NCBI GenBank assembly: GCA_963704725.1
Contig: OY969934.1
Span: 288,001 to 352,000 of the forward strand
Source: an uncultured Actinomycetes bacterium
GTDB lineage: Bacteria > Actinomycetota > UBA4738 > HRBIN12
Direction of reading: 5' to 3'
Length of the DNA stretch: 64,000 nt
Below the pieces are notes generated by a model. The model searched no databases. It worked only from the letters and a program-made list of their open reading frames with translations, and was not told where the DNA came from. The position numbers and the translations under genes are program-made. Of the stretch, positions 22,751 to 41,177 are shown piece by piece (positions within the stretch are counted from its first letter, which is position 1; each line of letters starts with the position of its first letter).

Positions 22751-22758
22751 TCGGCCCC

Positions 22759-23244
22759 CTATTCGTTGTAGCCGGTCGCGCCCCAGGTCTCGTCGAGGAG
22801 CTTCACGAACCACGTGCCGTTGTCGGTCCAGCCCTCCCGGCGGTAGAAGCGGTGGGTCGCCTCCCGCCAGGCGGAGGTCTCGAGCGACATCCGGAAGCAG
22901 CCGCGCTTGCGAGCGAGCGTCTCGGCCTCCGCCAGCAGCGAGCTCCCGATGCCCTTGCCGCGGGCCGACTCCGTCACGACGAGGTCGTTCACCCACGCCT
23001 GGGGCCTGGGGTGGCCGAGGCGCTGGCGGAACTCCATGTCGAGGAACCCGATCACGTCGCCCGCCGGGACCTCGGCGACCAGGGTCCGGGACTCGCGCAG
23101 CGCGAGATGGCCGCCGAACCGGATCACGAACGACGGGTTCGAGGCCGCCGAGGGCGACACGTCGCGCCCGAGCTCGACGAGGAGCGCGGCCACCTGCGGC
23201 CAGTCGTCCACGGTGGCGCGCCGGATGACGTGTGCGAGCCCCAC
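22759..23244 (-). CDS. GNAT acetyltransferase
   Basis: IRRAT..DLVVTESARGKGIGSSLL..HRFY. Confidence 0.88.
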   Translation of the reverse strand: MGLAHVIRRATVDDWPQVAALLVELGRDVSPSAASNPSFVIRFGGHLALRESRTLVAEVPAGDVIGFLDMEFRQRLGHPRPQAWVNDLVVTESARGKGIGSSLLAEAETLARKRGCFRMSLETSAWREATHRFYRREGWTDNGTWFVKLLDETWGATGYNE

Positions 23245-23251
23245 GGCCCGG

Positions 23252-24445: not shown

Positions 24446-24732
24446 CGGACGAACTCGCACCGGCAGGGCGAGGCGTCGCACTTCGGGCAGCCGGTCTCGT
24501 AGCGCGCGGCGGCGGTCGCCAGGTCGACGCCGGTCAGGTTGGCCAGGGACGCCAGCCACGCGAGCACGTCGGAGAACTCCAGCTCGAGCTGGGCCTGGTC
24601 GCCGTGGCGAAGCGCCCGGGCGAGCTCGCCCACCTCCTCGGTGAGCCATCGGAACGTGGCGTCGCGCCCGCGCTTCGCGTCGCGCTCGTAATAGGTCGAG
24701 CGCAGCGTCCGCTGCAGGTCTTCGAGCTCCAT
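24442..24732 (-). CDS. MazG-like nucleotide pyrophosphohydrolase
   Basis: WLTEEVGELA..EFSDVLAWLASLAN with a Cys tail CPKCDASPCRC. Confidence 0.9.
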   Translation of the reverse strand: MELEDLQRTLRSTYYERDAKRGRDATFRWLTEEVGELARALRHGDQAQLELEFSDVLAWLASLANLTGVDLATAAARYETGCPKCDASPCRCEFVR

Positions 24733-26230: not shown

Positions 26231-27532
26231 ATGCGTCGGATCGTCGTGATCGGTGCGGGAAGCGTGGAGTTCACGCGGAACGTCGTCGCCGACCTGTGCT
26301 CGTTCACCGAGCTCCACGGCGAGGTCACGTTCGCCCTGCACGACATCGACGAGGAGCGCCTCGCGTACTCGGCCAGGGCGGCGGAGTCCATCGTTCGACG
26401 GACCGGCGCCGGCTACGCGGTCGAGGCCCACGCCGACCGGCGAGCGGCGCTCGACGGCGCGGATTACGTCATCAACGAGATCCAGGTCGGTGGGTACCGT
26501 GCGACGCTGACGGACTTCGAGATCCCCAGGAAGTACGGGCTGCGCCAGACGATCGCGGACACGATCGGGATCGGCGGGATCTTCCGCGGACTGCGGACGA
26601 TCCCCGTCGTGGTCGGGATCGGCAACGACATGGCCCAGTTGTGCCCCGACGCCCTGCTGCTCAACTACGCGAACCCGATGGCGATGCTGCCGTGGGGCGT
26701 CTACGCCGGCACGCCGTTCTCGAACGTCGTGGGCGTGTGCCATTCGGTCCGCGACACCCACCACTTCCTCGCGGCCACGGTGGGCGTGCCCGAGGAGCAC
26801 GTGGCCTTTCGGACCGCCGGGTTCAACCACCAGGCGTTCGTCCTGGAGTTCCGGGACCGCCGGACGGGGAAGGACCTGTACCCCAGGCTCCGCGAGATCG
26901 TCGAGGCCGATCCCGAGGGGCTCGGCCGGCGCGTCCGCGTCGAGATCTTCCGGCGCTTCGGCTACTTCCCCACCGAGTCGAGCGAGCACTCGAGCGAGTA
27001 CGTCCCGTGGTTCCTGCACCACGACGACCAGGTCGAGCGGTACCGCTCAGAGATCGACGAGTACGTCCGCCGCAGCGACGAGAACCTGCTGGACTGGGAG
27101 TCGACGAAGGCGGCGCTCGACCGCGGCGAGGAGCTGGAGATCGAGCCGAGCTCCGAGCTGGCCTCGGAGATCATCCACTCGATCGAGACCGGCGTGCCCC
27201 GAGAGGTCTACACGAACGTCCGCAACGATGGACTGATCGATGGTCTGCCGCGCGACGCCTGCGTCGAGGTCCCCACGCTCGTCGACAAGAACGGCGTGCA
27301 GCCCACGCGGATCGGCGCGCTCCCGCCACAGCTCCTCGCGCTGAACCGGACGTTCGTGAACGTGGTGGAGCTCACCGTGCGGGCGGCGCTCGAGGGCCGT
27401 CGCGACCTCGTGTACGACGCGGCGCTCCTCGACCCCAACACGGCGGCGACGCTCACCGTCGATCAGATCGTGGCCATGTGCGACGACCTGATCGAGGCGC
27501 ACGGCGAGCTCCTGCCGCCGGGCATCCGCTGA
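26231..27532 (+). CDS. GH4 glycoside hydrolase (alpha-galactosidase subgroup)
   Basis: IGAGS, IPRKYG..DTIGIGG, NYANPM, CHSV, TESSEH. Confidence 0.93.
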   Translation: MRRIVVIGAGSVEFTRNVVADLCSFTELHGEVTFALHDIDEERLAYSARAAESIVRRTGAGYAVEAHADRRAALDGADYVINEIQVGGYRATLTDFEIPRKYGLRQTIADTIGIGGIFRGLRTIPVVVGIGNDMAQLCPDALLLNYANPMAMLPWGVYAGTPFSNVVGVCHSVRDTHHFLAATVGVPEEHVAFRTAGFNHQAFVLEFRDRRTGKDLYPRLREIVEADPEGLGRRVRVEIFRRFGYFPTESSEHSSEYVPWFLHHDDQVERYRSEIDEYVRRSDENLLDWESTKAALDRGEELEIEPSSELASEIIHSIETGVPREVYTNVRNDGLIDGLPRDACVEVPTLVDKNGVQPTRIGALPPQLLALNRTFVNVVELTVRAALEGRRDLVYDAALLDPNTAATLTVDQIVAMCDDLIEAHGELLPPGIR

Positions 27533-27539
27533 GCGCCGC

Positions 27540-28292
27540 TCACACCTCGGTCACGGTCAGACCGGCCTCGCGGAGCTCGGCCACGGCGGCGGGCTCGGCG
27601 CCGGAGGTGAGCAGCTCGTGGACCGCCGCGATCGGGCAGATGCGGGCGAACGCGACCACGCCGAGCTTCGAGCCGTCGGCCACCGCGATCACGCGATCCG
27701 CTCGCTCGAGCAGGATGCGGTTCGTGTGGGCCTCGACCTCGTGATGCGTCGTGAGGCCGTCGCGCGTGGAGATCCCGTCGGCGCCGAGGAAGACCACGTC
27801 GAGATGGAGATCGGCCAGCGTCTGCTCCGCGATCGGGCCGACGAGCTCGTAGGACTCGCTCCGGGCGATCCCGCCCGTGACGACGAGCTTGATGTTGGGC
27901 CGCACCGCGAGCTCGGCGGCGATGTTCAGGGCGTTCGTGACGACCGTCAGCCGTCGCTCCACCAGGGCCCGGGCGACCTGGGTCGTCGTCGTCCCGCCGG
28001 TCAGGCCGATCGCGGCGCCGTCGGAGACCCGGTCCGCCGCGGCCTGGGCGAGTCGACGTTTCTCCTCCTCGTGCCGGGAGGCCTTGTACCGCAGCGGGAG
28101 CTCGTACAGGACGCCGTGCGCCACCGCCCCGCCGTGGGTCCGGCTGAGGAGTCGCTGGTCCTCCAGCAGCTCCAGGTCCCGGCGGATCGTGGCCGAGGAG
28201 ACGCCGAGCCTGGAGGAGAGGTCGGCGACGGCGACGGAGCCGCCCGTGGAGAGCTCCTCGAGGATCGTTCCGAGCCGGTCGGACTGCCGCAC
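27540..28292 (-). CDS. DeoR/GlpR regulator, AgaR-like
   Basis: VSSATIRRDL..RTHGGA, GLTGGTTT, VVTNALNIA. Confidence 0.92.
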   Translation of the reverse strand: MRQSDRLGTILEELSTGGSVAVADLSSRLGVSSATIRRDLELLEDQRLLSRTHGGAVAHGVLYELPLRYKASRHEEEKRRLAQAAADRVSDGAAIGLTGGTTTTQVARALVERRLTVVTNALNIAAELAVRPNIKLVVTGGIARSESYELVGPIAEQTLADLHLDVVFLGADGISTRDGLTTHHEVEAHTNRILLERADRVIAVADGSKLGVVAFARICPIAAVHELLTSGAEPAAVAELREAGLTVTEV

Positions 28293-28353
28293 GCCCCGAG
28301 CATAGCGCGCTCGTGTTGCGTTCGTGAGCGATATGACTCTATAGTCGCCCCAA

Positions 28354-29229
28354 GTGAGCGAAATCGAGCGCGAGATCGCCAGCCAGCCCTCCTGTTGGAG
28401 GCAGGCCGCGAGTCGCGAGCCCTCGGTCCGGGAGGCGCTGCCGGCCCCGGGGACGCGGGTCGCGGTGATCGGCTGCGGGACCTCGCTGTTCGTGGCCCAG
28501 GCGTACGCGACGCTCCGCGAGGCGCTCGGGAAGGGGGAGACGGACGCGTTCCCCGCGTCGGAGGTTCCCACCGGCCGCGCCTACGACCACCTGCTCGCCA
28601 TCTCGAGGAGCGGGACGACGACGGAGGTCGCGCGCACCCTCTCCAGCGGGCGAGCCGGCACGCGCGTCGCGGTCGTGGGGGTCCCCGACACCCCGGTGGC
28701 CCGCGCCGCCGACCGCGTGGTGACGCTCGAGTTCGCCGACGAGCGATCGGTCGTCCAGACGCGCTTCGCGACGACGGCGCTCGCGCTGCTGCGCGCGAAC
28801 CTCGGCCAGGAGCTCGGCCCGCCGATCCGGGAGGCGGAGGCGACGGCCGGCTCGGCGCTCCCGGCGGACCCCGTGCGGTTCTCCCATTTCGTCTTCCTGG
28901 GGAGAGGATGGAGCGTGGGACTTGCCAGCGAGGCCGCGCTGAAGCTCCGCGAGGCTGCGCAGGTGTGGACCGAGTCCTATCCCGCGATGGAGTACCGGCA
29001 CGGCCCGATCAGCGTGGCCGGTCCCTCCACGCTGGTGTGGGCGCTCGGCGACGTCGGGGGCTCGGTCCTGGAGGACGCGAGGGCCACGGGCGCGACGGTC
29101 GTCGGCGGGGATCTGGACCCCATGGTGGAGCTGATCGGGATCCAACGGGCGGCGGTGCGGCTCGCGGAGCATCGGGGCCTCGACCCCGATCGCCCGCCGC
29201 ACCTGACGCGCTCGGTGGTGTTGTCGTGA
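28354..29229 (+). CDS. SIS-domain sugar-phosphate isomerase/deaminase (GlmS/AgaS-like)
   Basis: EIASQP, GCGTS, ISRSGTT, ALKLRE, EYRHGP, P.HLTRSV. Confidence 0.9.
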   Translation: MSEIEREIASQPSCWRQAASREPSVREALPAPGTRVAVIGCGTSLFVAQAYATLREALGKGETDAFPASEVPTGRAYDHLLAISRSGTTTEVARTLSSGRAGTRVAVVGVPDTPVARAADRVVTLEFADERSVVQTRFATTALALLRANLGQELGPPIREAEATAGSALPADPVRFSHFVFLGRGWSVGLASEAALKLREAAQVWTESYPAMEYRHGPISVAGPSTLVWALGDVGGSVLEDARATGATVVGGDLDPMVELIGIQRAAVRLAEHRGLDPDRPPHLTRSVVLS

Positions 29230-29254
29230 CGTGCTGCTCGACGGGAGGTCGACG

Positions 29255-30574
29255 ATGAAGCGCTCGTGGTGGCTCGCGCTGGGGCTCGTGCTGACGCTCG
29301 TGGCCGTGGGATGCACGAGCGGCGACGACGGCGGCGACGGCGACGGCGGATCGACGGGCGGGAACGTCCATCTCGTCATGTGGATGGGCTACACGCCCCC
29401 GCCGCCCGAAGCCGAATCCCTCGAGTACCTCTCCGTCCAGCGCATGGTGGAGGCGTTCCAGGCGGAGAACCCGGACATCACGATCGAGCTCCAGTACGTG
29501 AACAGCGACAACGCGCTGCAGAAGGCCACGGTCGCGCTGCAGGGCGACAAGCAGCCCGACATCTCGTACCAGTACGGGACGAACATGCCGCAGCTCGCGA
29601 CGAGCCCCAAGCTCGTCGACCTGACCGACCGCGTCCAGGCGGACGGCTACAACTGGGACGACTTCTACCCCGGCGAGCAGAAGGTGGCCACGGTGGACGG
29701 GAGGGTCCTCGGCGTGCCCGCGCTCGTCGACAACCTGGCCGTGGTCTACAACAAGGACCTGTTCGCGGCGGCCGGCGTGCCCGAGCCCGGCCCGGACTGG
29801 ACGTGGGCCGACCTCCGCGCGGCGGCCCAGGCCGTCACCGACCCGGCGAACAAGATCTTCGGCCTGGTCTTCCCGGCGGACGGGAGCGAAACGACGGTGT
29901 GGCAGTACGACGCGATGCTGTGGGCCGCCGGCGGCGACCTCCTCACCGACGACAACAGCCAGGTCGCGTTCAACGACGACGCCGGCGTCCGGGCTCTGAC
30001 GACGCTCACCGAGATCCAGCAGGACGGTTCCATGTACCTGGACTTCCAGCCGGACTCCGGCAAGTACGGACAGCTCTTCAACTCGGGCAAGATCGGGATG
30101 GTGATCACGGGGCCGTGGGACCTGGGCGGGTTCCCCGACGTGAACTACGGTGTGCAGGTCATGCCGTCGTTCGACCCGGGTGGGAACCACCAGACGATCG
30201 CCGGCCCGGACAACTGGGTCATCTTCGACAACGGTCCCGAGCGCGTCGACGCCGCGTGGAGGTTCCTCAGCTTCATGACCTCCCCCGAGCAGGTGCTGCA
30301 GGACTCGCTCGACACGAGCCACCTGCCGACGCGGGCGTCAGTCGCCGGGATGAGCGACTTCCAGCCGTTCTTCACGACGTACCCGGGCACCGAGGTCTTC
30401 GTCGACAACCTGGAGAACGTGGTGAACGCCCGGCCGCAGATCCCCCAGTACCCGAGGATCTCCACGGCGCTGGGCCAGGCCATCGTGAGTGCGCTCCAGG
30501 GTGACGTCTCGCCGCAGGACGCGCTCGATCAGGCGGCCGAGCAGGGCAACGGGTTCCTGGCGATCCCGGGCTGA
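29255..30574 (+). CDS. sugar ABC transporter substrate-binding lipoprotein
   Basis: Lipobox AVGC, YNKDLF, WTWADL. Confidence 0.93.
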   Translation: MKRSWWLALGLVLTLVAVGCTSGDDGGDGDGGSTGGNVHLVMWMGYTPPPPEAESLEYLSVQRMVEAFQAENPDITIELQYVNSDNALQKATVALQGDKQPDISYQYGTNMPQLATSPKLVDLTDRVQADGYNWDDFYPGEQKVATVDGRVLGVPALVDNLAVVYNKDLFAAAGVPEPGPDWTWADLRAAAQAVTDPANKIFGLVFPADGSETTVWQYDAMLWAAGGDLLTDDNSQVAFNDDAGVRALTTLTEIQQDGSMYLDFQPDSGKYGQLFNSGKIGMVITGPWDLGGFPDVNYGVQVMPSFDPGGNHQTIAGPDNWVIFDNGPERVDAAWRFLSFMTSPEQVLQDSLDTSHLPTRASVAGMSDFQPFFTTYPGTEVFVDNLENVVNARPQIPQYPRISTALGQAIVSALQGDVSPQDALDQAAEQGNGFLAIPG

Positions 30575-30580
30575 CGGCCG

Positions 30581-31474
30581 GTGGCCGTGAGCGCCCGCCG
30601 CGTCGTGCAGTCCGAGCACTTCGTCGGCTGGGCGTTCGCGTTCCCCGCGGTCGCCCTCGTCGTCGTGTTCGGCATCGTGCCGATCCTGTGGTCGGCGTTG
30701 ATGTCCTTCCAGCGCACGAACCTCATCGCGCCCGCCGAGTGGGTCGGCCTGGAGAACTACCGGGCCCTGCCCCAGGACCCGCTCTTCAAGACCGCGATGG
30801 TCCACGCCGCGATCTACACGGCGCTGTTCGTCCCGCTCTCCGTCGCCGGGGGCCTGTTCGCAGCCGTGGCCCTCAACCGGAGGATCCGAGGCATCCGGCT
30901 CTACCGGCTGGCGGTGTTCGTGCCCGTGGTCATCTCGACGATCGCGACCGTCATCATGTTCCTCGTCCTGCTGGACCCGAACTACGGGCTGGCCAACTGG
31001 CTCCTGGGGAAGGTGGGGCTGGGCCCGTTCGGCTTCTTCACCAGCTCGAACGGCGCCCTGTTCGCCATCGTCGTGATGACGGCGTGGGGGTGGGTCGGGT
31101 TCGACGCCCTGATCTACCTCGCGGCTCTCCAGGGCGTCCCCGCCGACCTGCTCGAGGCCGCGTCGATCGACGGCGCCCGACCCTGGAGCATCTTCCGGAA
31201 CGTGACGCTGCCGCTCCTCGGCCCGGCGACGCTGTTCCTGGTCGTGTTCTCGTCGATCAACGCGTGGCAGCTCTTCGACGAGGTGTATCTGGCGACGAGA
31301 GGGGGGCCGGGCAGCGCCACGTACGTCCCCGTCTACTACCTGTTCACGCTGGCGTTCCAGCAGGGGATCGCCGGGTACGCCGCGGCGATCGCGTACGTCC
31401 TGCTCCTGGTCATCCTCGTCTTCACGGTCATCGAGCTGTGGGTGGGCAAGCGACTCGTGTACTACGCCTCATGA
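30581..31474 (+). CDS. sugar ABC permease
   Basis: EAASIDGA motif, VGLENY. Confidence 0.95.
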   Translation: MAVSARRVVQSEHFVGWAFAFPAVALVVVFGIVPILWSALMSFQRTNLIAPAEWVGLENYRALPQDPLFKTAMVHAAIYTALFVPLSVAGGLFAAVALNRRIRGIRLYRLAVFVPVVISTIATVIMFLVLLDPNYGLANWLLGKVGLGPFGFFTSSNGALFAIVVMTAWGWVGFDALIYLAALQGVPADLLEAASIDGARPWSIFRNVTLPLLGPATLFLVVFSSINAWQLFDEVYLATRGGPGSATYVPVYYLFTLAFQQGIAGYAAAIAYVLLLVILVFTVIELWVGKRLVYYAS

Positions 31475-32349
31475 CCGACGTCCTCGAACGCCCCGTGCTC
31501 TCCCCGCTCCCCGACGACGAGGCGAACCGGCGGCGTCGCTTCCTGTTCAGCCCGTGGCACCTCGTCCTGCTGCCGCTCGCGCTCCTGATGATCCTTCCGC
31601 TGGCCTGGATGGTGATCACGTCGCTCGAGACGCTGAACGAGACCCGACACTTCCCGCCCATCGTGATCCCGAGCGGCCTGCAGGGACACAACTACACCGA
31701 GGTCCTGCGGCGGGCCCCGTTCGGGTGGTGGATGCTCAACACGGTCATCGTCACCGGCGCGGTCGTCGTCGGGAACCTGCTGTTCTGCAGCCTGGCGGGC
31801 TACGCGTTCGCGCGGTTCAAGTTCTTCGGTCGGGACGTCGTGTTCCTGCTCGTGCTGGCCACGCTGATGGTCCCGTTCCAGGTCATCCTGATCCCGACGT
31901 TCGTGATCCTGCGCAAGCTCGGCCTCATCGACACGCTCGGAGCGCTGATCCTGCCGAACCTCTCGGGCGCGTTCGGCATCTTCCTCCTCCGGCAGTTCTT
32001 CCGGACGCTCCCGATCGAGCTCGAGGAGGCGGCGCGGATCGACGGAGCCTCGCGGCTCGGCGTGCTGTTCAAGATCGTGCTGCCGCTGTCGGGGCCGGCG
32101 CTCGCGACGCTGGCCATCGTCACGTTCCTGTGGACGTGGAACGACTTCCTGCTCCCGCTCGTGACCATCTACTCTCCGAACCACATGACGCTGCAGCTCG
32201 GTCTCGCGACGTTCCAGGGCGCCCATTCGACGAACACGCACCTGCTCATGGCGGCGAACGTGATGAGCCTCGTGCCGATGCTGGTGCTGTTCCTCGTGCT
32301 GCAGCGGTACTTCATCCGCGGCATCGCCACGACCGGGCTCAAGGGGTGA
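31471..32349 (+). CDS. sugar ABC permease
   Basis: ELEEAARIDGA, WNDFL. Confidence 0.95.
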   Translation: MTDVLERPVLSPLPDDEANRRRRFLFSPWHLVLLPLALLMILPLAWMVITSLETLNETRHFPPIVIPSGLQGHNYTEVLRRAPFGWWMLNTVIVTGAVVVGNLLFCSLAGYAFARFKFFGRDVVFLLVLATLMVPFQVILIPTFVILRKLGLIDTLGALILPNLSGAFGIFLLRQFFRTLPIELEEAARIDGASRLGVLFKIVLPLSGPALATLAIVTFLWTWNDFLLPLVTIYSPNHMTLQLGLATFQGAHSTNTHLLMAANVMSLVPMLVLFLVLQRYFIRGIATTGLKG

Positions 32350-32353
32350 GGTC

Positions 32354-33469
32354 GTGGCCGAGGTCGTGATCGACGGCGTCACGAAGGAGTTCCTCGGCGG
32401 CGCGGTGGCCCTGGAGGACCTGTCGCTGCAGATCCCCGACGGCGAGTTCATGATCCTGGTCGGGCCGTCGGGATGCGGGAAGACGACCGCGCTCCGCTGT
32501 GTCGCCGGGCTCGAGCGGCCGACGCGCGGCCGGATCCTGATCGGCGATCGGGTCGTCAACGACGTGACCCCGCGGGACCGGGACATCGCCATGGTCTTCC
32601 AGAGCTACGCCCTGTATCCGCACATGTCGGTCCGCCGGAACCTGGCGTTCGGCCTGAAGGAGCGGAGGACGCCGAAGCCGGAGGTCGAGCGGCGGGTCCT
32701 CGAGATCAGCTCGATGCTCGGCCTCGACGACCTGCTCAAGCGCCGCCCGGCGCAGCTCTCGGGCGGGCAGCGGCAGCGGGTGGCGATGGGGCGGGCGCTC
32801 GTGCGCGAGCCGAAGGCGTTCCTGCTGGACGAGCCGCTGTCGAACCTCGACGCGAAGCTCCGCGTGCAGATGCGGGCCGAGCTCAAGCGGCTCCACGCCC
32901 GGCTCGGCATCACTACGATCTACGTGACGCACGACCAGGTCGAGGCCATGACCCTCGGCGACCGCATCGGCGTCCTGTCCGCCGGCCGCCTGCAGCAGGT
33001 CGGGCCGCCGCAAGAGCTCTACGACCGGCCGTGCAACCTGTTCGTCGCCGGGTTCATCGGGAGCCCGCCGATGAACCTGGTGCGCGGGATGGCCTCGGCC
33101 GGTCGCGTCACCGCGGGGGACCTGACCTTCGAACGAGGCGGCGTCCCGGACGGGGAGGTCGCGATCGGCATGCGCCCGGAGGCCTACGTCCCGGGCGACG
33201 ACGGGCTGCCGTCGCTCGAGCTGCTGGTCGACGTCGTCGAGCCACTCGGCGACGAGGTGGTCGTCCACGGGACCACGCCGGGCACCGCCGTCGAGAGTGG
33301 CGCCGAGGAGGAGGAGGTCCCGGTCGCCGTGGAGGAGTCGCGGGCTCCCATCACCGCGCGGTTCGACCCCGACGTTCGGCTGCGACCCGGCGAGCGGATC
33401 CGGCTCGGCGTCCGGCCCGAGCGCGTGCACCTGTTCGACGTTCGCACGGGCGTCGCGATCGGCCGCTGA
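32354..33469 (+). CDS. sugar ABC ATP-binding protein (MalK/MsiK-like)
   Basis: GPSGCGKT, LSGGQRQR, DEPLSNLDAKLR. Confidence 0.96.
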   Translation: MAEVVIDGVTKEFLGGAVALEDLSLQIPDGEFMILVGPSGCGKTTALRCVAGLERPTRGRILIGDRVVNDVTPRDRDIAMVFQSYALYPHMSVRRNLAFGLKERRTPKPEVERRVLEISSMLGLDDLLKRRPAQLSGGQRQRVAMGRALVREPKAFLLDEPLSNLDAKLRVQMRAELKRLHARLGITTIYVTHDQVEAMTLGDRIGVLSAGRLQQVGPPQELYDRPCNLFVAGFIGSPPMNLVRGMASAGRVTAGDLTFERGGVPDGEVAIGMRPEAYVPGDDGLPSLELLVDVVEPLGDEVVVHGTTPGTAVESGAEEEEVPVAVEESRAPITARFDPDVRLRPGERIRLGVRPERVHLFDVRTGVAIGR

Positions 33470-34962
33470 TCACCGGCAGGGCGTCCAGGGCTCGCGTAGA
33501 GGCTGTAGTTCCGGGCCTTGACGATCGAGCTGAAGTCCCAGGCGTTCGCCGTGTCGCAGAACTCGCCGGGGTCGAGCCGGTACTCGGCCTGGAAGACCGG
33601 CTTGCCGGACTCGATGAACGCCCGCCAGGCCGGCGCCGGGATAGCCGCCGCCGTCGCACTCGTCGTACTGGAAGCACTGCTCGTTGATCGCGTAGTCGAA
33701 CGACGAGAGCAGGTCCTGCGATCTGGCCGCCGTCATTCTTCAGCGCGACCGAGAGGCCGTCGGCGTGCGCCATCTCGGCGAGAGCCAGGTCGTACGCGAG
33801 CTGCGTCCGGGAGCTCACGCGCCAGCCGGTCGTGTCCCGTCCCTGCGCGTAGGTGTCGACGATGTCGTACTCGATGCCGTCGAACCCGGCCGCCGCGACC
33901 CGGTCGGTTCTCGCGCGCATCATCTGGAGCATGAAGTCGCGCTGGCCGTGGTCGTCGTTCAGGTTCGCCCAGTACTCGTCGGGGAAGCGGCGGCTGAACG
34001 GGTTGCCGAGCAGGCAGCCGTCGCACCGCCGGTCGAAGTCGACGAACTGCGCGTAGTCGGGGCGCCATCGCTCGGCGTCCCCCGCGGTCACGTAGCCGAT
34101 CGCGTGGCGGTCCGAGGCGTGGATCGCGTCGACGGCCGCCGTGTCGATCACGTAGCCGAACCGGCCGGCGATCTGTGGGTCGACGTAGATGTCGATGTCG
34201 AAGACGTCCGGACGCACACACGGGCCGCCGCCGAACGGCGGTTCGCAGACGTCGACGTCGATCCCGTTGGTCGCCTCGTGCTCCCCAGCCCGGGCCTCGA
34301 GCTGCCACTGCCAACGGGTGCCGACGGCGGGGAGCCACGGTGCCGAGGCGGGGCCGGCGCTCGAGTAGACCCACAGGGACTCCCAATCGAGGCGGGCGTC
34401 GCCGGGCTCGGCCGCCCGGAGCCGGATCCGCAGCTCACGCGTGCCGGGGTCCACGAGGTCGGCGAGGCTCGCGCCCGGCGCGTGGATCACGTTGTCCTGC
34501 ACGTACTTCCACCGGGCGCGCCGGAGGTCGTCGCACGGCCACTGGGCCGTCCCCGCGTCGCCGCCGCAGTGGTTCTGGTTCCCGAGCCGGACCCACGCGT
34601 CGCGCGCCCAGTCGAACGCGCTCCACGTCCATGCGTTCGATCGCGCCCTCGGGCCGCGGAGGTTCGCCACGAGCGTGATCGTCGTGACGGCCGAGGGCGC
34701 GACGTCGGCCGGCAGGACGTACGTGCGGGTGCCCGAGTACGGCTCGTCGGTCCCGGTCAGCCTGGACGAAGCGGGACGGGTCGTCCTGCGTCCCCGACTG
34801 ATCGCGCGCCGCGAGCGCCTCGACCGATCCCTCGTGCGAGCCGACGGCGTCGGTCAGGGCGGTCGGCGCGAGCTCGCTCAGGCGGACGGGTTCGGCGGCG
34901 GCGGTCGACGGCACGCTGAGGAGCGTTCCGACGATCGCCAGCGCGACGACGAGCCGATTCAC
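33470..34962 (-). CDS. secreted GH114 endo-alpha-1,4-polygalactosaminidase-like protein (about 4 frameshifts)
   Basis: Signal peptide, extra N-domain, then WQWQL, FDID, ERWRPD, GFDGIEYD, LKND, AINEQCFQYDEC, KPVFQAEY, spread over several frames. Confidence 0.8.
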
Positions 34963-36296
34963 CGGTCGAACTGTGGCAGCCATCGCGCCTCCGCTTCGAG
35001 CATCCGATCCGCCATCTCGTGGATCCGGGGCAGGGTGAGCACGGCGCCCGTCAGCGGGTCGAGTGCGAGGGCCGTGTGGACGAGGTCCCGGTCGCCGGTG
35101 GTCGCCGCCTCGACGGTCAGGCGCTGCACGTTGACCTGGACCTCGTTGAGCGCGGCGCAGGCCGGCGGGAGCGCACCGTAGGGCGTGGGGTGCACGCCGT
35201 TCGCGTCGACCGAGCACGCCACCTCGACGCAGGCGTCGGGCGGGAGGTTGTCGATCAGCCCGGCGTTGCGCACGTTCCCGTACACGACGCGCGGCGTTCC
35301 GGTGACCATGCTGTCGACGATGAGCGCCGCGAACTCGCCTCCGTGCCGGAGCCCGTTCGTCCGCGCGTCCTCGACGATGTCCTCGTTCGTCACGTCGGCC
35401 GTCGTCGACCGGCAGATCTCGAGGTAGTCCCACCGGCGGTCCAGGTACTCCTCGACCAGCTCGGGCGTCTTGCGGAACCACGCCCAGTACTCGCTGGCGT
35501 GGTGGCTCGACTCGGTGTGGAAGTAGCCCGTGAGCCGCATGAGCTCGGCCCGGACGCGCTCGATGCTCTCGTAGGCGTCGTCCGACCGCGGCAGCAGGGG
35601 GATCGAGCGCTCCACGTGCCGCCGCGTCATGACGTCGCGGATCCGGGGGATCAGGTCCTCGTCGCCGCGGCGAAACGTCGTGAACCAGGCCGTGTGGTTC
35701 ACGCCGGCGCACTCGAAGGTCACCTCGTCGCGCGGAACCCCGAGCTCGCGAGCCAGGAGCTCGGACGTCCCCTGGACGCTGTGGCACAGGCCGACGACGT
35801 TCACGCGGGTGAGGTCCGTGGCCCAGCAGTTCACCGACATGGGGTTCGCGTAGTTGAGGAGGAGGGCGTCCGGGCAGATCTCGAGCATGGTCTCGGCCAC
35901 CACGCGGAGCGCCTCGACCGTCCGCAGCCCGCGGAACAGCCCGCCCGGCCCGAGCGTGTCGCCTACGGTCTGGTCGATCCCGAACTCCCGGGGGATCTCG
36001 ATGTCGGCGCCGTACGCGTCGAGTCCCCCGACCTGGAACACCGTCAACACGACGTCGGCGCCGGCGAGAGCCTCGCGCAGCTCGCGCGCCACGCGGACGC
36101 GCGCGGGCACCCGACCGATCTCGATCAGGGCCTCGACGAAGCCGCGGGTGCGCTCCGCCGCCGGGACGTCGAGGTCGTACAGCACGAACTCGGAGCCCCC
36201 CAGCGCCGGGAACGAGAGCACGTCGCGGGCGAGCTCCAGCGGGAACACCCACCCGCCCGCGCCCACGATCACGATCCGCGGCGTCTCCGAGGGCAT
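34959..36296 (-). CDS. GH4 glycoside hydrolase (second paralog)
   Basis: VGAGG, QTVGDTLGPGG, NYANPM, CHSV, TESSHH. Confidence 0.93.
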   Translation of the reverse strand: MPSETPRIVIVGAGGWVFPLELARDVLSFPALGGSEFVLYDLDVPAAERTRGFVEALIEIGRVPARVRVARELREALAGADVVLTVFQVGGLDAYGADIEIPREFGIDQTVGDTLGPGGLFRGLRTVEALRVVAETMLEICPDALLLNYANPMSVNCWATDLTRVNVVGLCHSVQGTSELLARELGVPRDEVTFECAGVNHTAWFTTFRRGDEDLIPRIRDVMTRRHVERSIPLLPRSDDAYESIERVRAELMRLTGYFHTESSHHASEYWAWFRKTPELVEEYLDRRWDYLEICRSTTADVTNEDIVEDARTNGLRHGGEFAALIVDSMVTGTPRVVYGNVRNAGLIDNLPPDACVEVACSVDANGVHPTPYGALPPACAALNEVQVNVQRLTVEAATTGDRDLVHTALALDPLTGAVLTLPRIHEMADRMLEAEARWLPQFDR

Positions 36297-36384
36297 GTCG
36301 TGCCGATCCTAGCGAACCACCGGTGCGCCCCGGTCGAAGGAGGGTCGGGCCGCATCGACGCCGCCCAGGCGGAAGGAGAGGTTC

Positions 36385-36864
36385 ATGAGACGGATCGGGA
36401 TCATCGCGATCTCGGCGGGACTGGCGCTGGCGCTGGCCGCGTGCAGCAGCACGACGAACGACTCGACGTCGACGTCGCCGACGGGCGCAGCCGCCGCATC
36501 GACCGCCCCGGCCGGTTCGACGGCTCCGGCCGCGACGAGCACACCGGCCGCGACGAGCACACCGGAGGACTCCGGCGGACTCTCGGGCACCTGGTCGGGG
36601 CAGTACGACGGCGCCTACCACGGCACCTTCGTCCTCGACTGGCAGCAATCGGGGACGAACCTCAGCGGCACGATCGAGCTGTCGTCTCCGGCCCAGACCC
36701 TCAGCATCGACGGGACCGTGGAGGGGGGCACGATCAGCTTCGGCACCGTCGGCTCGACGGCGATCACCTACTCGGGAACGGTCTCCGGCGACTCGATGTC
36801 GGGCACGTACGAGGTTCAGGACGGGAGCGGCGGCTCTTGGAGCGCCGCCAAGGAGAGCTCCTGA
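36385..36864 (+). CDS. small lipoprotein with Ser/Thr/Ala linker and beta-rich domain
   Basis: Lipobox LAAC, LSGTWSG..SGSWSA-like domain. Confidence 0.8.
   Translation: MRRIGIIAISAGLALALAACSSTTNDSTSTSPTGAAAASTAPAGSTAPAATSTPAATSTPEDSGGLSGTWSGQYDGAYHGTFVLDWQQSGTNLSGTIELSSPAQTLSIDGTVEGGTISFGTVGSTAITYSGTVSGDSMSGTYEVQDGSGGSWSAAKESS
36526..36565 (+). repeat. 18-bp tandem repeat (PAATST x2) in the lipoprotein linker
   Basis: ccggccgcgacgagcaca occurs twice, followed by ccgg. Confidence 0.8.
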
Positions 36865-36967
36865 GCGAGGGGACCGGCGGCCCGGCGCGGCTCCGCGGCC
36901 CGGCGCGTCGTCGCTCCCTCGGCGCGAGCGCCGGACACGGAGGCCGCGAGCGGGAGAAGATGCGTCC

Positions 36968-37723
36968 GTGCGCGGTCTGGACGACCAGGGGGTGCTCGTC
37001 ACCGGCGGGTCGAGCGGGATCGGCTTCGCGATCGCCGAGCGATTCCTCGCCGAGGGCGCGCGCGTGTTCCTGTGCGGCGTCGACCAGCCCGAGGTGACGG
37101 CGGCGCTGGATCGGCTGGGGCCGGATCGCCCCGTCGCCGGCGCGCCGTGCGACGTCAGCGGGCCCGACGGCGTCGCCGCCCTGGTCGAGGCCGCCGAGCG
37201 GTTCCTCGGCCGGATCGACGTGCTGGCCAACAACGCCGGCATCGCGAGCAAGGCCAGGTTCCTCGACCTGGACCTGGCCGAGCTGGGACCGCACGATCGC
37301 GGTGAACCTCCGCGGGATGTTCCTCGTGGCCCAGGCGGTCGCCCGGCGCATGGTGGCCGAGGCGGCGGCGGGTGCATCGTCAACATGGCCTCGACGAACG
37401 CCCTCGGTGGGGAGGAGGAGTTCGCCCACTACAACGCGTCGAAGGGCGGCGTGCTCCAGCTCACCCGGACGATGGCGATCGAGCTCGCCCCCCGCGGCGT
37501 GCGCGTGAACTGCGTCTGCCCCGGGTTCATCGACACGCCGCTGAACGCGGCCCTGGCCGACGAGGATGCCTCGCGCGCGTACGAGCGTGACAAGATCCCG
37601 CTCGGCCGCCGGGGCCGGCCCGAGGAGGTCGCCGCGGTGTTCGCGTTCCTCGCCTCGGACGACGCCTCGTTCGTCCACGGCGCCGCCGTCGTGGTGGACG
37701 GCGGCCAGACCGCGGTGATGTGA
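36968..37723 (+). CDS. SDR oxidoreductase (compensating frameshifts at ~37283 and ~37361)
   Basis: TGGSSGIG, NNAGI, YNASKGG. The expected WDRTIAVNLRGMF segment is in another frame. Confidence 0.88.
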   Translation: MRGLDDQGVLVTGGSSGIGFAIAERFLAEGARVFLCGVDQPEVTAALDRLGPDRPVAGAPCDVSGPDGVAALVEAAERFLGRIDVLANNAGIASKARFLDLDLAELGPHDRGEPPRDVPRGPGGRPAHGGRGGGGCIVNMASTNALGGEEEFAHYNASKGGVLQLTRTMAIELAPRGVRVNCVCPGFIDTPLNAALADEDASRAYERDKIPLGRRGRPEEVAAVFAFLASDDASFVHGAAVVVDGGQTAVM

Positions 37724-37734
37724 AGGAGACGCCC

Positions 37735-38571
37735 GTGCCCACGCCGCTCGATCGCACCAGGCAGATCCCGACCGGTCCGGGCAAGGTCACGCTGTGCTGG
37801 CTTGGGCAGGCGGGGTTCGTCGCGCGCGGGCCGGAGGCGACCGTCCTCATCGACCCGTTCCTCTCGCCCCACCGCGGGCGGTTGTACGAGAGCGCCCTCC
37901 CCCCGGCCGAGGCCTCCGGCGTCGACGTCGTGCTCTGCACGCACGAGCACGTCGATCACTTCGACGCGGCGAGCGCGCCGGCCATCGCTAAGGCCTCGCC
38001 CGGCGCGGTCTTCGTGGTGCCCGCTCCGATCGTGGACATGGTGACCGAGGCGGGCATCGCCGCGGAACGCGTGGTGGGGCTTCAGCCGGGGGGCCCCGTC
38101 GAGGTGGCCGGGGTCACGCTCCGCGCCATGCCGGCCATGCACGGGGTCACGATGGCCGACGCGTACGGGTTCGGCGAGGCGCTCTCCGGGGGGATGATCA
38201 GGTTCCTCGGCTACGTGGTGGACCTCGGCGGCGTGCGGCTGTACCACGCGGGCGACACGATCCACTACGAGGGGATGGAGACGCGGCTCCGCGAGCTGTC
38301 GATCGACGTCGCCCTCCTGCCGATCAACGGCCGCGACCCCGAGCGCGAGGGCCGGGACATCGTGGGGAACCTCTCCGAGCGCGAGGCCGCGTGGCTCGCC
38401 GGCGAGATCGACGCGGGCGTGCTCATCCCTATGCACCACGACCTGTTCGAGCGGAACCGCGGCTACCCGGCCCACGTCGTCGAGAGCGTCGAGCGCGAGC
38501 ACCCCGGGACCGCCGTGCTGGTCCCGCCGCGCGAGGTGCCGTTCGTCCTCGCGCCGGCGAGGCCGGCGTGA
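37735..38571 (+). CDS. MBL-fold hydrolase (UlaG-like)
   Basis: WLGQAGF, THEHVDHFD, YHAGDT, LPING, PMHHD. Confidence 0.88.
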   Translation: MPTPLDRTRQIPTGPGKVTLCWLGQAGFVARGPEATVLIDPFLSPHRGRLYESALPPAEASGVDVVLCTHEHVDHFDAASAPAIAKASPGAVFVVPAPIVDMVTEAGIAAERVVGLQPGGPVEVAGVTLRAMPAMHGVTMADAYGFGEALSGGMIRFLGYVVDLGGVRLYHAGDTIHYEGMETRLRELSIDVALLPINGRDPEREGRDIVGNLSEREAAWLAGEIDAGVLIPMHHDLFERNRGYPAHVVESVEREHPGTAVLVPPREVPFVLAPARPA

Positions 38572-39566
38572 ACGCGCTCGTCTACCTCGGCCCCCGGCGG
38601 ATGTCGTGGCAGGAGGAACCCGATCCCGAGCCGGGCCCGGGGGAGGTGGTGATCCGGGCCACGGCCTCGGCCGTGTGCGGCTCCGACCTCCACGGCTTCC
38701 GGGAGGCCAGCCCGCGACGGATCCCCCCGCTCGTCATGGGACACGAGACCGTGGGCCGGATCGACGCGGTGGGCGAGGGCGTGGACGCCTCGCGCATCGG
38801 CGAGCGGGTCGTGCTCAAGCCGATCCTGGCGTGCGGCGCGTGCGACCGGTGTCTCGAGGGACGCGACAACATCTGCCGGCAGGGACGTCTCGTGGGGCGG
38901 GACCTCGCCGGCGGGTTCGCCGAGCGCTTCGCCGTCCCGGCGCCGGCGACGGTCCCGATCGCCGGGGACGTGTCCGACGACGTCGCCACCCTGACCGAGC
39001 CGCTGGCGAACGCCGTCCACGTGACGAGCCGGAGCGTGGCCCTCGGTGACACGGTGCTGGTGATCGGCGCCGGGCCGATCGGCGCGCTCATGGCGCGGAT
39101 GGCCGTCGAGCGCGGGGCATCGGCCGTGTTCTCGGCCGATCGCATCCCCTCGCGCCTGGAGCTCGCTCGGGCGCAGGGCGCCCGGCCGCTCGACCCGGAC
39201 GACCCGGAGGGCTCGATGCGGCGCGAAATCGCCGACGGCGTCGACGTGGTGATCGACGCGGTGGGGGTCGAGGCGACGTGGGCCCTTGGCCTCCGCTCGG
39301 TGCGTCCGGGTGGCCGGATCGAGGTGGTGGGTCTCGGGGCGCCCGCCGGGACGATCGACTTCTTCTCCGTGGTCGGCCGCGAGGTCCAGGTCTCCGGGTC
39401 GTTCGGCTGGACGAGCGAAGACTTCCGCCGCGCGCTCGAGCTCGTCGAGGGCGGCTCGATCGACGTCGCCGGGTGGCTGACGGGCTTCTCGATGGCCGAG
39501 GGTCAGCGCGCGTTCGAGGAGCTCGTCGACGGCACGGCACTGTTCAAGGTGGTCCTCGCTCCTTGA
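38568..39566 (+). CDS. Zn-dependent (sugar alcohol-type) dehydrogenase
   Basis: CGSD, GHE, CxxCxxC..C, GAGPIG. Confidence 0.92.
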   Translation: MNALVYLGPRRMSWQEEPDPEPGPGEVVIRATASAVCGSDLHGFREASPRRIPPLVMGHETVGRIDAVGEGVDASRIGERVVLKPILACGACDRCLEGRDNICRQGRLVGRDLAGGFAERFAVPAPATVPIAGDVSDDVATLTEPLANAVHVTSRSVALGDTVLVIGAGPIGALMARMAVERGASAVFSADRIPSRLELARAQGARPLDPDDPEGSMRREIADGVDVVIDAVGVEATWALGLRSVRPGGRIEVVGLGAPAGTIDFFSVVGREVQVSGSFGWTSEDFRRALELVEGGSIDVAGWLTGFSMAEGQRAFEELVDGTALFKVVLAP

Positions 39567-39580
39567 ACCCGAACGCGGCG

Positions 39581-40267
39581 ATGTTCGTCTACGCCGACGA
39601 GGTCGCCGAACGCTATCCGGCGATCCGCGCCGGGGTCGCCCACGCGGCCGGCCTGACCAATAGGCCGAGCGGACCGGAGCTGCTGGCCGAGCTCCGCGCC
39701 GAGCAGCGAGCGGCCGCCGACCGGCTGGCGGTCACGACGATCGCGGACCTCCCCTCGATCGCGGCGTGGCGGCGCGCGTTCTCGGCGTTCGGCGCCAAGC
39801 CGACGCAGTACCGCAGCGCGGCGGAAGCCCTGCTGCGCAGGCTCTCCAAGCAGGGCGATCTCCCCAGCATCAACACGCTCGTCGACATCGGGAACCTGGT
39901 CTCGATCCGCTTCGCCGTGCCGGTGGCCGTGTTCAATCTGGCCACCGTGGCCGTTCCCATCACGGTCCGGTTCGCCACCGGCGAGGAGCGGTTCGACGAC
40001 CTCGGGTCCGGCGGGAGCGACGCCCCCGAGCCCGGCGAGGTGATCTTCGTCGACCGGGACGGGGTGGTGTGCGCGCGACGGTGGTGCTGGCGCCAGAGCG
40101 CCGGCAGCGCGACCGGTCCGACCACGGCCGAGGCGCTGTTCGTCGTCGAGGGTCACCACGCCGCCGCGGCGACGGACGTGGAGGCGGCGCTGGCGGATCT
40201 GACTGGGCTGCTCGCGTCGCACCAGCCCGCGAGCGTGGTCACGACCCGAGCGGTCGCTCCGGTCTAA
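39581..40267 (+). CDS. B3/B4 (PheRS-beta editing-like) domain protein
   Basis: AWRRAF..KPTQYRSAAEALLRR..INTLVD..RRWCWRQ. Confidence 0.88.
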   Translation: MFVYADEVAERYPAIRAGVAHAAGLTNRPSGPELLAELRAEQRAAADRLAVTTIADLPSIAAWRRAFSAFGAKPTQYRSAAEALLRRLSKQGDLPSINTLVDIGNLVSIRFAVPVAVFNLATVAVPITVRFATGEERFDDLGSGGSDAPEPGEVIFVDRDGVVCARRWCWRQSAGSATGPTTAEALFVVEGHHAAAATDVEAALADLTGLLASHQPASVVTTRAVAPV

Positions 40268-41177
40268 GGGCTTCGAGCGCCTCCGCCATCGTCGGCTGCC
40301 CCCCCGTGCCCCCCACCGCGCGGGTCGAGAGCGCGCCGCACGCCACGGCGAGACCGAGGCAGCGCGACAACGGCCACGACGCCAGGAGTCCGGCGATGAA
40401 CCCCGCGTCGAACGAGTCCCCCGCCCCGACGGCGTCGACGACGTCGACCCGGGGTGCGCCCGTGTGGACGAGCTCGTCCCCCTGCGCGGCCACCGCGCCG
40501 ATCTCTCCGAGCTTCACGGCGACGATGCCGCCGTGCGTGCCGAGTGTGCGGGCCGCGTCCTCGGCGACCTCGACGCGAGCGATCGCGATCGCCTCGGCCG
40601 CGTTGGGGAGGAACACGTCGGTGTGCGGCAGGAGCTCGAGGAGCCAGTCGTCCCACCCCCCGCTCGCGTCCCAGTTGGGGTCGACCGATGTCGTGGCGCC
40701 GGCGCGGTGCGCCTCCTCGAACAGCGACGCCAGCCCGGGACGGAGCGAACGCTGCAGGAAGTACGACGACACATGGACGTGGCGCGCCGACCGCACGAGA
40801 TCGAGGTCGACGTCGTCGGCGGAGAGCGCCTCGACCGTGCCCGGGGACGTGAGGATCGCCCGATCCGTCCCATCGGACAGGATGACCGAGAGTCCCGTGG
40901 GGCCGCGGCCGCCGGTGACGATCCCCGCCGTGCCGACACCCCGCTCGGACAGCGCCCCGACCATGAACGCGCCGAACGGGTCGTCCCCGACGACCCCGCA
41001 GAGCGCCGTCCGCAGGCCGAGTCGCGCGGCGCCGCACGCGGTGATCGCCCCCGAGCCCCCCACGACCAGGGTGTGCTCGACGAGCTGCTCCACCTGGCCG
41101 AACGCCGGCCGAACGTCCCCCCGCAGGACCAGGTCGGGGTTCACGTCGCCCAGCACCAGGAGGTCGAGGTCGGCCAT
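40239..41177 (-). CDS. PfkB family carbohydrate kinase
   Basis: GGSGAITA, VGDDPFG, DAVGAGDSF. Confidence 0.93.
   Translation of the reverse strand: MADLDLLVLGDVNPDLVLRGDVRPAFGQVEQLVEHTLVVGGSGAITACGAARLGLRTALCGVVGDDPFGAFMVGALSERGVGTAGIVTGGRGPTGLSVILSDGTDRAILTSPGTVEALSADDVDLDLVRSARHVHVSSYFLQRSLRPGLASLFEEAHRAGATTSVDPNWDASGGWDDWLLELLPHTDVFLPNAAEAIAIARVEVAEDAARTLGTHGGIVAVKLGEIGAVAAQGDELVHTGAPRVDVVDAVGAGDSFDAGFIAGLLASWPLSRCLGLAVACGALSTRAVGGTGGQPTMAEALEALRPERPLGS

Follow-up and report, generated by a model that had tools for sequence, protein, structure and literature searches.

Here we describe a carbohydrate-utilization locus at positions 26231-41177 of a 64,000-nucleotide stretch of DNA (the window) from an uncultured Actinomycetes bacterium, the window itself being positions 288001-352000 of a single 3.45-Mb contig (G+C about 71%). 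The locus brings together a gene for a secreted glycoside hydrolase of family 114 (GH114), two glycoside hydrolases of family 4 (GH4-A and GH4-B), an ATP-binding cassette (ABC) importer, a SIS-domain protein, a DeoR-family repressor and a PfkB-family kinase, a set that a first-pass annotation of the same DNA had listed and that Pfam and NCBIfam searches find in place. We lean, by preference rather than with assurance, towards reading it as a system for the uptake and breakdown of oligomers of alpha-1,4-galactosamine or galactosaminogalactan. The gene arrangement recurs in many related genomes and is no chance neighborhood. Within it, GH114 appears to be an accessory and optional front end, which occurs in two forms and several positions, is absent or decayed elsewhere, and is very probably a recent pseudogene in the present genome. 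Taken as a whole, the earlier annotation is upheld in part, as regards a conserved uptake and breakdown locus that is best explained by galactosamine-rich oligomers, but GH114 is broken here, and the chemistry after sugar release departs from the scheme first drawn or extends it.

In relatives with an intact locus, a secreted GH114 endo-alpha-1,4-galactosaminidase would cut de-N-acetylated stretches of the polymer; import of the oligomers would fall to the MalK-like ATPase with its pair of permeases and its lipoprotein binding protein, and two cytoplasmic NAD/Mn-type GH4s would remove terminal alpha-linked residues. GH4-A, a member of the MelA clade, would probably be an alpha-galactosidase, and GH4-B, which forms a separate clade, is a candidate alpha-galactosaminidase. 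The released amino sugar would then be deaminated and enter central metabolism under the control of an AgaR-like DeoR repressor. According to PMC12054363, galactosaminogalactan contains alpha-1,4-linked galactose (Gal) besides galactosamine (GalN) and N-acetylgalactosamine (GalNAc), and a pair made of an alpha-galactosidase and an alpha-galactosaminidase would suit oligomers of this kind. The whole would be a polysaccharide-utilization-type locus of the Gram-positive sort, with fungal galactosaminogalactan or Pel-like polymers as the likely sources.

The family membership of GH114 is well marked. Its largest frame segment scores 106.6 bits with PF03537 (cut-off 27; model positions 1-160 of 231) and retrieves 95 homologues, among them 43 full-length proteins of 471-521 aa with 62-76% identity and both a GH114_assoc and a GH114 domain. 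These full-length proteins come mostly from metagenomes and uncultured Actinomycetota, and three orthologous ones that were inspected carry N-terminal signal peptides. A profile built from 16 intact members of the clade has as its best match in the PDB the endo-alpha-1,4-galactosaminidase Ega3 (6oj1, E 2.4e-28), with 9ep6 at 4.9e-16; the weakest of its four PDB matches is 9ep5 (5.5e-06), which we take, from the entry titles and PMC12054363, to be a GH191 enzyme. The clade profile is closer to the GH114 structures than to that chain, which shares the Pfam model. A search for PF12138 (GH135-type hydrolase) gave no match here, but none in control genomes either, and is therefore uninformative. 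According to PMC12054363, the characterized enzymes of GH114, GH135, GH166 and GH191 are all endo-galactosaminidases, de-acetylated stretches are preferred by GH114, and bacterial GH114 enzymes are described as hardly characterized.

A scan of species-representative genomes yielded 34 GH114 loci, seven of them closest to the window (66-72% identity) and 27 more distant. In all seven closest loci an intact GH114 gene of about 500 aa directly follows GH4-B, with the ATPase gene convergent downstream. Where these loci extend far enough, they also contain an operon for a short-chain dehydrogenase/reductase (SDR), a metallo-beta-lactamase (MBL)-fold hydrolase and a Zn-dependent alcohol dehydrogenase (ADH) (five of five), the binding protein and permeases (five of five, with SIS in four of those five), and DeoR and GH4-A (four of four). 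From a map of 14 loci, the conserved core in this family consists of GH4-B, GH4-A, the ABC importer, SIS, DeoR and SDR-MBL-ADH, mostly accompanied by a D-Ser-dehydratase-like gene. Variable members are RidA, Amidohydro_2, the window-type PfkB and a second PfkB paired with an AraD-like gene.

Two GH114 types stand in four different arrangements with the GH4/importer gene set, one of them in Streptosporangium sp., where a short GH114 lies between two GH4-A-like genes together with Amidohydro_2, a binding protein and permeases, ADH, SDR, an FAA-hydrolase-family gene and an SMP-30 lactonase. The shorter type also adjoins a GH4-A-like gene in genomes G203 and G190, being fragmentary and with an in-frame TAG in the latter, and lies 12 kb from GH4-B in G018. 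This pattern of distribution argues for a functional link between GH114 and the locus, and the connection that had been drawn between a GH114 of Ega3 type, the GH4s, the ABC importer and amino-sugar-type enzymes is supported by genome context. Among 13 genomes of the same genus, one has a GH114, a short paralogue with none of 16 other locus proteins nearby; this copy and those of three other relatives all represent a short GH114 paralogue (28-31% identity) that stands apart from the locus proteins. One of the related loci (L016) belongs to a record titled as a Planctomycetaceae metagenome-assembled genome; it is fully syntenic with the actinobacterial loci, with 69-78% protein identity and 71% G+C, and its contig has probably been binned wrongly.

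GH4-B and GH114 show translational coupling. The overlap GTGA reported earlier is present at 34962-34959, where the stop codon of GH4-B (TGA, 34961-34959) meets a GTG (34962-34960) from which GH114 can be read in the frame of its signal peptide; the alternative start codon is an ATG at 34983. From there on, minus-strand translation and tblastn give four frame segments spread over three frames, the Pfam GH114 model is matched in three pieces (positions 1-160, 158-181 and 184-226), and comparison with the aligned nucleotide sequences of six orthologues reveals insertions of one nucleotide near 34763, 33719 and 33641 and a deletion of one nucleotide near 33493, none of them in a homopolymer. The frame is lost about 73 residues after the native start and the coding sequence is interrupted. 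The motifs EYDIVD and INEQC are kept, but in different reading frames; in the work on Ega3, the catalytic residues reportedly lie in such DxD-type and NEQC motifs. The eleven flanking syntenic genes (about 11.1 kb) contain no indel, each aligning to its orthologues in one frame, and all nine SBP_bac_1 genes of this genome are unbroken. By our own arithmetic, four random indels over 12.6 kb would all land in GH114 with p of about 2e-4.

Besides a recent pseudogene, the frameshifts could stem from assembly errors, for instance in a low-coverage or strain-mixed long-read stretch, with the gene being functional in the organism. The genome is a single 3.45-Mb contig, each frame segment retains 60-75% identity to orthologues and a high third-position G+C (GC3), the codons of the catalytic motifs are intact, and two of the insertions lie in GATC- or CCAGG-like contexts, which are error-prone in nanopore base calling; it also counts against the pseudogene call that the frameshifts come from one assembly. 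One public run (5% of sampled words), compared at 85% likeness, gave only short stretches from related organisms, none of which spans an indel. The contrast of four indels in 1.5 kb with none in the flanks or in the nine SBP_bac_1 genes nevertheless speaks for genuine decay, as does their position outside homopolymers; moreover, several relatives whose loci are otherwise intact have no GH114 or only a decayed one, so that its loss is a pattern in the family. We thus hold the error explanation to be decidedly improbable. The secreted GH114 of the first-pass annotation is right as to family and signal-peptide frame, but this genome has no open gene for it and the polymer-cutting step would be lost here; the possibility raised there, that GH114 is a true pseudogene and not syntenic elsewhere, applies in its first half only, since intact and syntenic copies exist in relatives. 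In some related loci (L015, L058, L064), split matches for ADH, SDR, GH4-A or ATPase call for care before single-gene frameshifts are named pseudogenes.

The window locus itself, at its own position, also has no D-Ser-dehydratase-like, RidA or Amidohydro_2 gene, an intact D-Ser-dehydratase-like gene and RidA being found in a second locus of the genome at about 520-532 kb. Because the GH114 gene is very probably inactive and these three genes are missing from the locus, this strain could at most scavenge oligomers freed by other organisms.

The two GH4s start directly with their N-terminal Rossmann motif, the GxGS region of which reads VIGAGS and IVGAGG. With the NCBIfam alpha-galactosidase model NF011657 (cut-off 486), GH4-A scores 570 and GH4-B 501.6 bits. 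The claimed CHSV motif is confirmed in both, and it is shared with E. coli MelA; at the metal-binding Cys it is said, in work of Hall, Pikis and Thompson from 2009, to mark alpha-galactosidases. Identity to MelA is 45% for GH4-A and 38% for GH4-B, and 43% between the two. In a tree of 34 rows with one characterized enzyme, E. coli MelA, GH4-A falls in the clade of MelA (17 rows, support 99/99) and GH4-B in a separate clade (13 rows, 99/97), all 13 rows of which read TESSHH where all 17 of the MelA/GH4-A rows read TESSEH; the GH4-B clade also has Trp where 15 of the 17 have Asp. These clade-specific residues may be taken only as a lead to specificity. The PDB set searched contains no MelA-type structure, the best matches lying at about E 1e-40, and a galactosaminidase is not known among the GH4 activities. 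Additional GH4-A-like paralogues in relatives (L021, 14304-15602; L024, 12154-13491) have CMSA or CHAA in place of CHSV and may have altered or lost activity.

Downstream of the glycosidases, the SIS protein had been taken for an AgaS-type deaminase, which is not borne out: it reaches 34.5 bits with the AgaS model TIGR02815 (cut-off 529.2) and 80 bits, again below cut-off, with the NCBIfam model of GlmD. Its nearest PDB entries are 2cb0, 1j5x and 8eol, GlmD-type deaminases being matched at 6e-17 and the AgaS-like 3i0z and 3odp at about 2e-4, and its nearest solved relatives are GlmD, TM0813 and NagB-II GlcN-6-P deaminases. It would rather belong to the GlmD/NagB-II/GlmS-isomerase type, as a candidate amino-sugar-6-phosphate deaminase. 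For the repressor, AgaR (NF040755) is the best-scoring of ten DeoR models, at 199 bits against a cut-off of 260, so that its likeness to AgaR holds as to rank and not as to score. As for the PfkB protein, its best models all stay below cut-off (IolC 132 against 300, ribokinase 121 against 300, 1-PFK subfamily 61.6 against 216); it matches no model of a tagatose-6-P kinase and occurs in only three of the 14 mapped loci (L053, L058 and L060; 55-58% identity), which leaves the earlier idea that it feeds tagatose-6-P without support.

The conserved SDR-MBL-ADH operon had no place in the pathway first proposed for the released sugars. The SDR comes close to the glucose 1-dehydrogenase subfamily (212 bits, cut-off 215), the MBL-fold protein has UlaG as its best PDB match (2wyl, E 2.1e-16), and the Zn-ADH reaches 197.8 bits, below cut-off, with the NCBIfam model Tdh. 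A D-Ser-dehydratase-like gene is present in the related loci L016, L017, L018, L051, L052, L053, L057 and L064 and is adjoined by RidA in L016, L017 and L064. Among solved proteins its product is closest to D-threo-3-hydroxyaspartate dehydratase, D-threonine aldolase and D-serine dehydratase, whose substrates are in every case D-beta-hydroxy-alpha-amino acids, the class to which D-galactosaminate belongs. The neighboring RidA fits an enamine-releasing dehydratase, and this pyridoxal phosphate (PLP) enzyme and RidA together point to an amino sugar as the substrate. The 'class II aldolase' of the relatives is nearest to L-ribulose-5-P 4-epimerase (246 bits against 251). Altogether, SDR-MBL-ADH, the D-Ser-dehydratase-like enzyme, RidA, Amidohydro_2, the second PfkB and the AraD-like protein suggest a different or additional route after release.

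Two such routes are compatible with the conserved genes. In a phosphorylative route, a PfkB-type kinase and then the GlmD-like SIS deaminase would lead to tagatose-6-P, followed in some relatives by the AraD-like 4-epimerase. In an oxidative one, the SDR or the ADH would act as a sugar dehydrogenase and a UlaG-like or Amidohydro_2 lactonase would give D-galactosaminate, which the D-Ser-dehydratase-like PLP enzyme and RidA would convert to a 2-keto-3-deoxy acid.

Several observations weigh against a galactosamine-directed function. A GH4 lies within 10 kb of GH114 in only one of the 27 more distant loci, that of Streptosporangium sp. In a reverse search of a 401-genome sample of the phylum, GH4-B-like proteins were found in 50 genomes (E 1e-60) and GH114 in 45 (E 1e-20), each tally including one unpublished genome that was otherwise unused; a GH4-B orthologue of at least 57% identity occurs in ten of the 401, with GH114 within 15 kb in four (this genome, G280, G021 and G018), elsewhere in the genome in two, and nowhere at E 1e-20 in the remaining G293, G229, G104 and G102. 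Because only four of these ten genomes have GH114 within 15 kb, the core locus appears to work without it. All six GH114-GH4 co-localizations in the sample fall in the window's own family, so that much of the synteny would be shared descent. Furthermore, both GH4s pass the alpha-galactosidase model and GH4-A is as much as 45% identical to a true alpha-galactosidase, and the fixed change from Glu to His in GH4-B adds no acidic residue of the kind expected for amine binding. The net charge of the binding protein (-8.6 per 100 aa) lies within the range of the nine SBP_bac_1 proteins of the genome (-8.1 to -12.2), and its acidity was for that reason rejected as a sign of a cationic ligand. Neither downstream route is free of gaps: for the phosphorylative one no kinase model fits and SIS stays below every curated cut-off, and for the oxidative one a search of this genome (95% complete) detected no PF01081 protein that could serve as KDPG/KDPGal aldolase, and Amidohydro_2 has no characterized close relative. 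Gene content, frameshifts, synteny and families are read from the DNA, while every substrate and enzymatic step we infer from them.

In the main rival reading, the locus would serve the use of common alpha-galactosides such as melibiose, raffinose or sugars of galactinol type: two MelA-like GH4s would work with a CUT1 importer, and the released galactose would be oxidized by the dehydrogenases and the lactonase, GH114 being unrelated or loosely associated. Since both GH4s are alpha-galactosidase-like, exceeding the cut-off of NF011657 and keeping CHSV, and GH4-A clusters with E. coli MelA, plain use of alpha-galactosides is a possible function; in addition, the locus persists without GH114 in four relatives (L051, L052, L053 and L064), and tandem pairs resembling GH4-A and GH4-B exist in another family without amino-sugar genes (L061-L063). 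Such a locus would leave unexplained the conserved GlmD-like SIS, the D-Ser-dehydratase-like PLP enzyme and RidA, the two GH114 types that stand beside these GH4s in as many as four arrangements, including that of Streptosporangiaceae, and the translational coupling of GH4-B and GH114, and no galactonate dehydratase is present in the locus; on these grounds we consider it unlikely. A less probable alternative still, to which we would give little credence, is that the locus serves another amino-sugar glycoside, such as glucosamine or chitosan oligomers, as proposed for the GH4 CsnH of Streptomyces, or alpha-GalNAc glycans, with a GH114 of undescribed specificity. A GH4 does occur in the csnR-K cluster for glucosamine oligomers (PMC5635096), bacterial GH114 enzymes are almost uncharacterized (PMC12054363), and the second locus of this genome combines a GH4, a D-Ser-dehydratase-like protein, RidA, two SIS proteins, CE4, ROK and an ABC importer. 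However, both GH4s of the window locus belong to the MelA (alpha-galacto) type, the GH4 of the second locus has no CHSV and shares only 27-31% identity with GH4-A and GH4-B orthologues, the window locus contains no deacetylase, and every characterized GH114 is an alpha-1,4-galactosaminidase, with Ega3 as the best match of the clade profile.

A galactosamine-rich substrate being preferred, a more far-reaching proposal can be formulated, which we find doubtful and put forward as speculation: that the GH4-B clade would comprise the first NAD+/Mn2+-dependent exo-alpha-1,4-galactosaminidases, that the locus family would encode a complete, hitherto undescribed bacterial pathway for consuming galactosaminogalactan or Pel-type polymers, including a branch in which galactosamine is oxidized to D-galactosaminate and deaminated by the D-Ser-dehydratase-like enzyme with RidA, and that GH114 would be a repeatedly lost public good whose loss leaves scavengers. 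In the literature searched, with subscription journals mostly outside, no description was found of a catabolic locus with GH114 and GH4, of a GH4 galactosaminidase or of a galactosaminate pathway, nor of any catabolic pathway for galactosaminogalactan or Pel, the matches being CAZyme surveys and unrelated studies. Both polymers are cationic biofilm components tied to fungal and bacterial persistence, and most of the enzymes known to cleave them belong to the biosynthetic clusters of the producers themselves. The locus offers clonable candidates for a new GH4 specificity, a binding protein for GalN oligomers and a missing intracellular route for galactosamine, and its family provides leads to soluble enzymes from bacteria, whose GH114 enzymes have so far resisted production. 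Moreover, that GH114 has repeatedly been lost while the rest of the locus stayed intact constitutes a testable case of producers and scavengers in polymer degradation.

The genes of the locus are collected in Table 1. They were called by GC3 and frame plots because the base composition makes spurious open reading frames (ORFs) abundant, and were scanned against Pfam and NCBIfam, the starts being refined afterwards by a start scan.

Table 1. Genes called at positions 26231-41177 of the window, with the evidence for each
Feature	Positions	Strand	Evidence
GH4-A, NAD/Mn-type family 4 glycosidase, predicted cytoplasmic	26231-27532	+	Pfam PF02056 and PF11975
DeoR-family repressor	27540-28292	-	Pfam HTH_DeoR and DeoRC; GTG start at 28292 from orthologue alignment and start scan
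SIS-domain protein	28354-29229	+	Pfam SIS
CUT1-type solute-binding lipoprotein	29231-30574	+	Pfam SBP_bac_1 and SBP_bac_8; signal peptide ending in Cys
ABC permease 1	30581-31474	+	Pfam BPD_transp_1
ABC permease 2	31471-32349	+	Open from 31471; GC3 phase fits; EAA-type loop; ATGA overlap with permease 1
MalK/UgpC-like ABC ATPase	32354-33469	+	Pfam ABC_tran and OB_MalK; NCBIfam UgpC subfamily, 440.6 bits
GH114, probable pseudogene (signal peptide, GH114_assoc and GH114 catalytic domain)	33470-34983	-	Four 1-nt indels
GH4-B, family 4 glycosidase, predicted cytoplasmic	34959-36296	-	Pfam PF02056 and PF11975; CHSV and TESSHH
Small lipoprotein ORF	36385-36864	+	Strong ribosome-binding site, ATG, signal peptide ending in Cys; no Pfam family
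SDR oxidoreductase, glucose 1-dehydrogenase-like	36968-37723	+	Pfam adh_short_C2; syntenic in relatives
MBL-fold hydrolase, UlaG lactonase-like	37720-38571	+	Pfam Lactamase_B_2; syntenic in relatives
Zn-dependent ADH, threonine 3-dehydrogenase-like	38568-39566	+	Pfam ADH_N and ADH_zinc_N; start overlaps MBL stop; syntenic
B3_4-domain protein	39563-40267	+	Pfam B3_4
PfkB-family sugar kinase	40239-41177	-	Pfam PfkB, 180 bits; convergent with ADH operon

The first-pass inventory was right in the genes it listed, but it omitted the SDR, MBL, Zn-ADH and B3_4 genes and the lipoprotein ORF. The lipoprotein ORF was preferred to a minus-strand ORF upstream of GH4-B (36309-36590), which was rejected; it gives no tblastn match in the 14 mapped related loci and sits where relatives have RidA and the D-Ser-dehydratase-like gene. 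No tblastn match was obtained for the B3_4-domain protein either, in the related loci examined; it is a stand-alone protein translationally coupled to the Zn-ADH, with a domain known from the beta subunit of PheRS. An ORF at 31554-32369 was discarded as permease 2, given that it has no Pfam match and that the GC3 phase shows it to be in the wrong frame, and the tblastn matches obtained with its peptide (50-60% identity) mark position only. The nearest PDB matches of the solute-binding protein are generic sugar binders. All nine SBP_bac_1 proteins are strongly acidic, perhaps because the secreted proteome as a whole is adapted to salt or acidic for another reason, and two of their genes (1074842 and 1663041) agree exactly in score and composition, suggesting a duplicated region. 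A shared operator was also sought: the exact 9-mers common to five promoter regions of the window are trivial, and a CAYGAACG-type word noticed by eye upstream of orthologous DeoR/SIS and GH4-B genes occurs 47 times in the window where 35.9 +/- 6.2 occurrences are expected, a difference that is not significant.

Around the locus, a transposase of insertion-sequence type (rve integrase core, HTH_21) lies a few kb upstream, at 19508-20771, where the G+C is lower (about 0.67). It is followed at 21670-26135 by an APH-family phosphotransferase, an Eis-like GNAT protein with an SCP2 domain and an MFS transporter, divergent from GH4-A, a set that looks like aminoglycoside modification and efflux genes beside an amino-sugar locus; the GNAT and MFS genes have no match in the 34 GH114-related loci, bar one weak MFS match in an unrelated locus, APH not having been searched. 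On the other side, 42222-44510 encodes a protein of 762 aa in which a domain of fatty-acyl reductase type (NAD_binding_4, Sterile) is fused to a HAD hydrolase domain.

Among known systems, the aga regulon of E. coli (AgaR, AgaS and the tagatose-6-P route for GalNAc and GalN) likewise joins a DeoR-family regulator, for which AgaR is the top model here, to a SIS protein. Unlike it, the window locus has no phosphotransferase system, AgaA deacetylase or AgaZ/AgaY or KbaY aldolase, and its SIS protein, with 291 aa against the 372 positions of the AgaS model, fails that model. In another system (PMC9529869), a PLP enzyme removes the amino group of an amino-sugar acid and so yields a 2-keto-3-deoxy acid; the PLP fold in the window's relatives is instead of the D-Ser-dehydratase/D-threo-3-hydroxyaspartate dehydratase type, and the window locus differs in that the PLP gene is absent from it and no KDPG aldolase was found in the genome.

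With Ega3 of Aspergillus fumigatus and the enzyme of Pseudomonas sp. 881, the window GH114 has the PF03537 catalytic domain in common, and the motifs around two acidic residues of Ega3 align with EYDIVD and INEQC of the window clade. This clade differs in having an extra N-terminal GH114_assoc domain, in its length of about 500 aa, and in sitting in a catabolic rather than a biosynthetic locus, the window copy being in addition frameshifted. In turn, E. coli MelA, an NAD+/Mn2+-dependent GH4 alpha-galactosidase, shares with the window GH4s the two GH4 Pfam domains, CHSV and NF011657, whereas the genes of the latter come as a pair in linkage with GH114 and amino-sugar-type genes, an ABC importer takes the place of the MelB symporter, and GH4-B stands outside the MelA clade with TESSHH in place of TESSEH.

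On the same contig but outside the window, at about 520000-532000, lies a second locus of amino-sugar type (L049) that resembles the csnR-K cluster of Streptomyces. Import is represented there by a binding protein, a permease and a MalK-like ATPase, and regulation by a ROK protein; the other genes encode two SIS proteins of two domains each, a CE4 polysaccharide deacetylase, RidA, a distant third GH4 that lacks CHSV and a D-Ser-dehydratase-like protein, whose gene is intact. The cluster csnR-K itself (CsnEFG importer, CsnH GH4, CsnK kinase), which serves glucosamine oligomers set free by secreted chitosanases, compares with the window locus in that both join a secreted endo-enzyme acting on a cationic amino-sugar polymer, ABC import, a cytoplasmic GH4 and a kinase. 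They differ in that csnR-K has a ROK regulator and a GH46 endo-enzyme, whereas the window locus has DeoR, GH114 and GH4s of alpha-galacto type, with SIS, SDR, MBL and ADH genes in addition. In published accounts (PMC5635096; bioRxiv 10.1101/2023.09.20.558697), csnH is a GH4 gene within this glucosamine-oligosaccharide operon and the activity of CsnH is only presumed; by analogy, it may nevertheless serve as a precedent for a GH4 in a cluster devoted to the uptake of amino-sugar oligomers.

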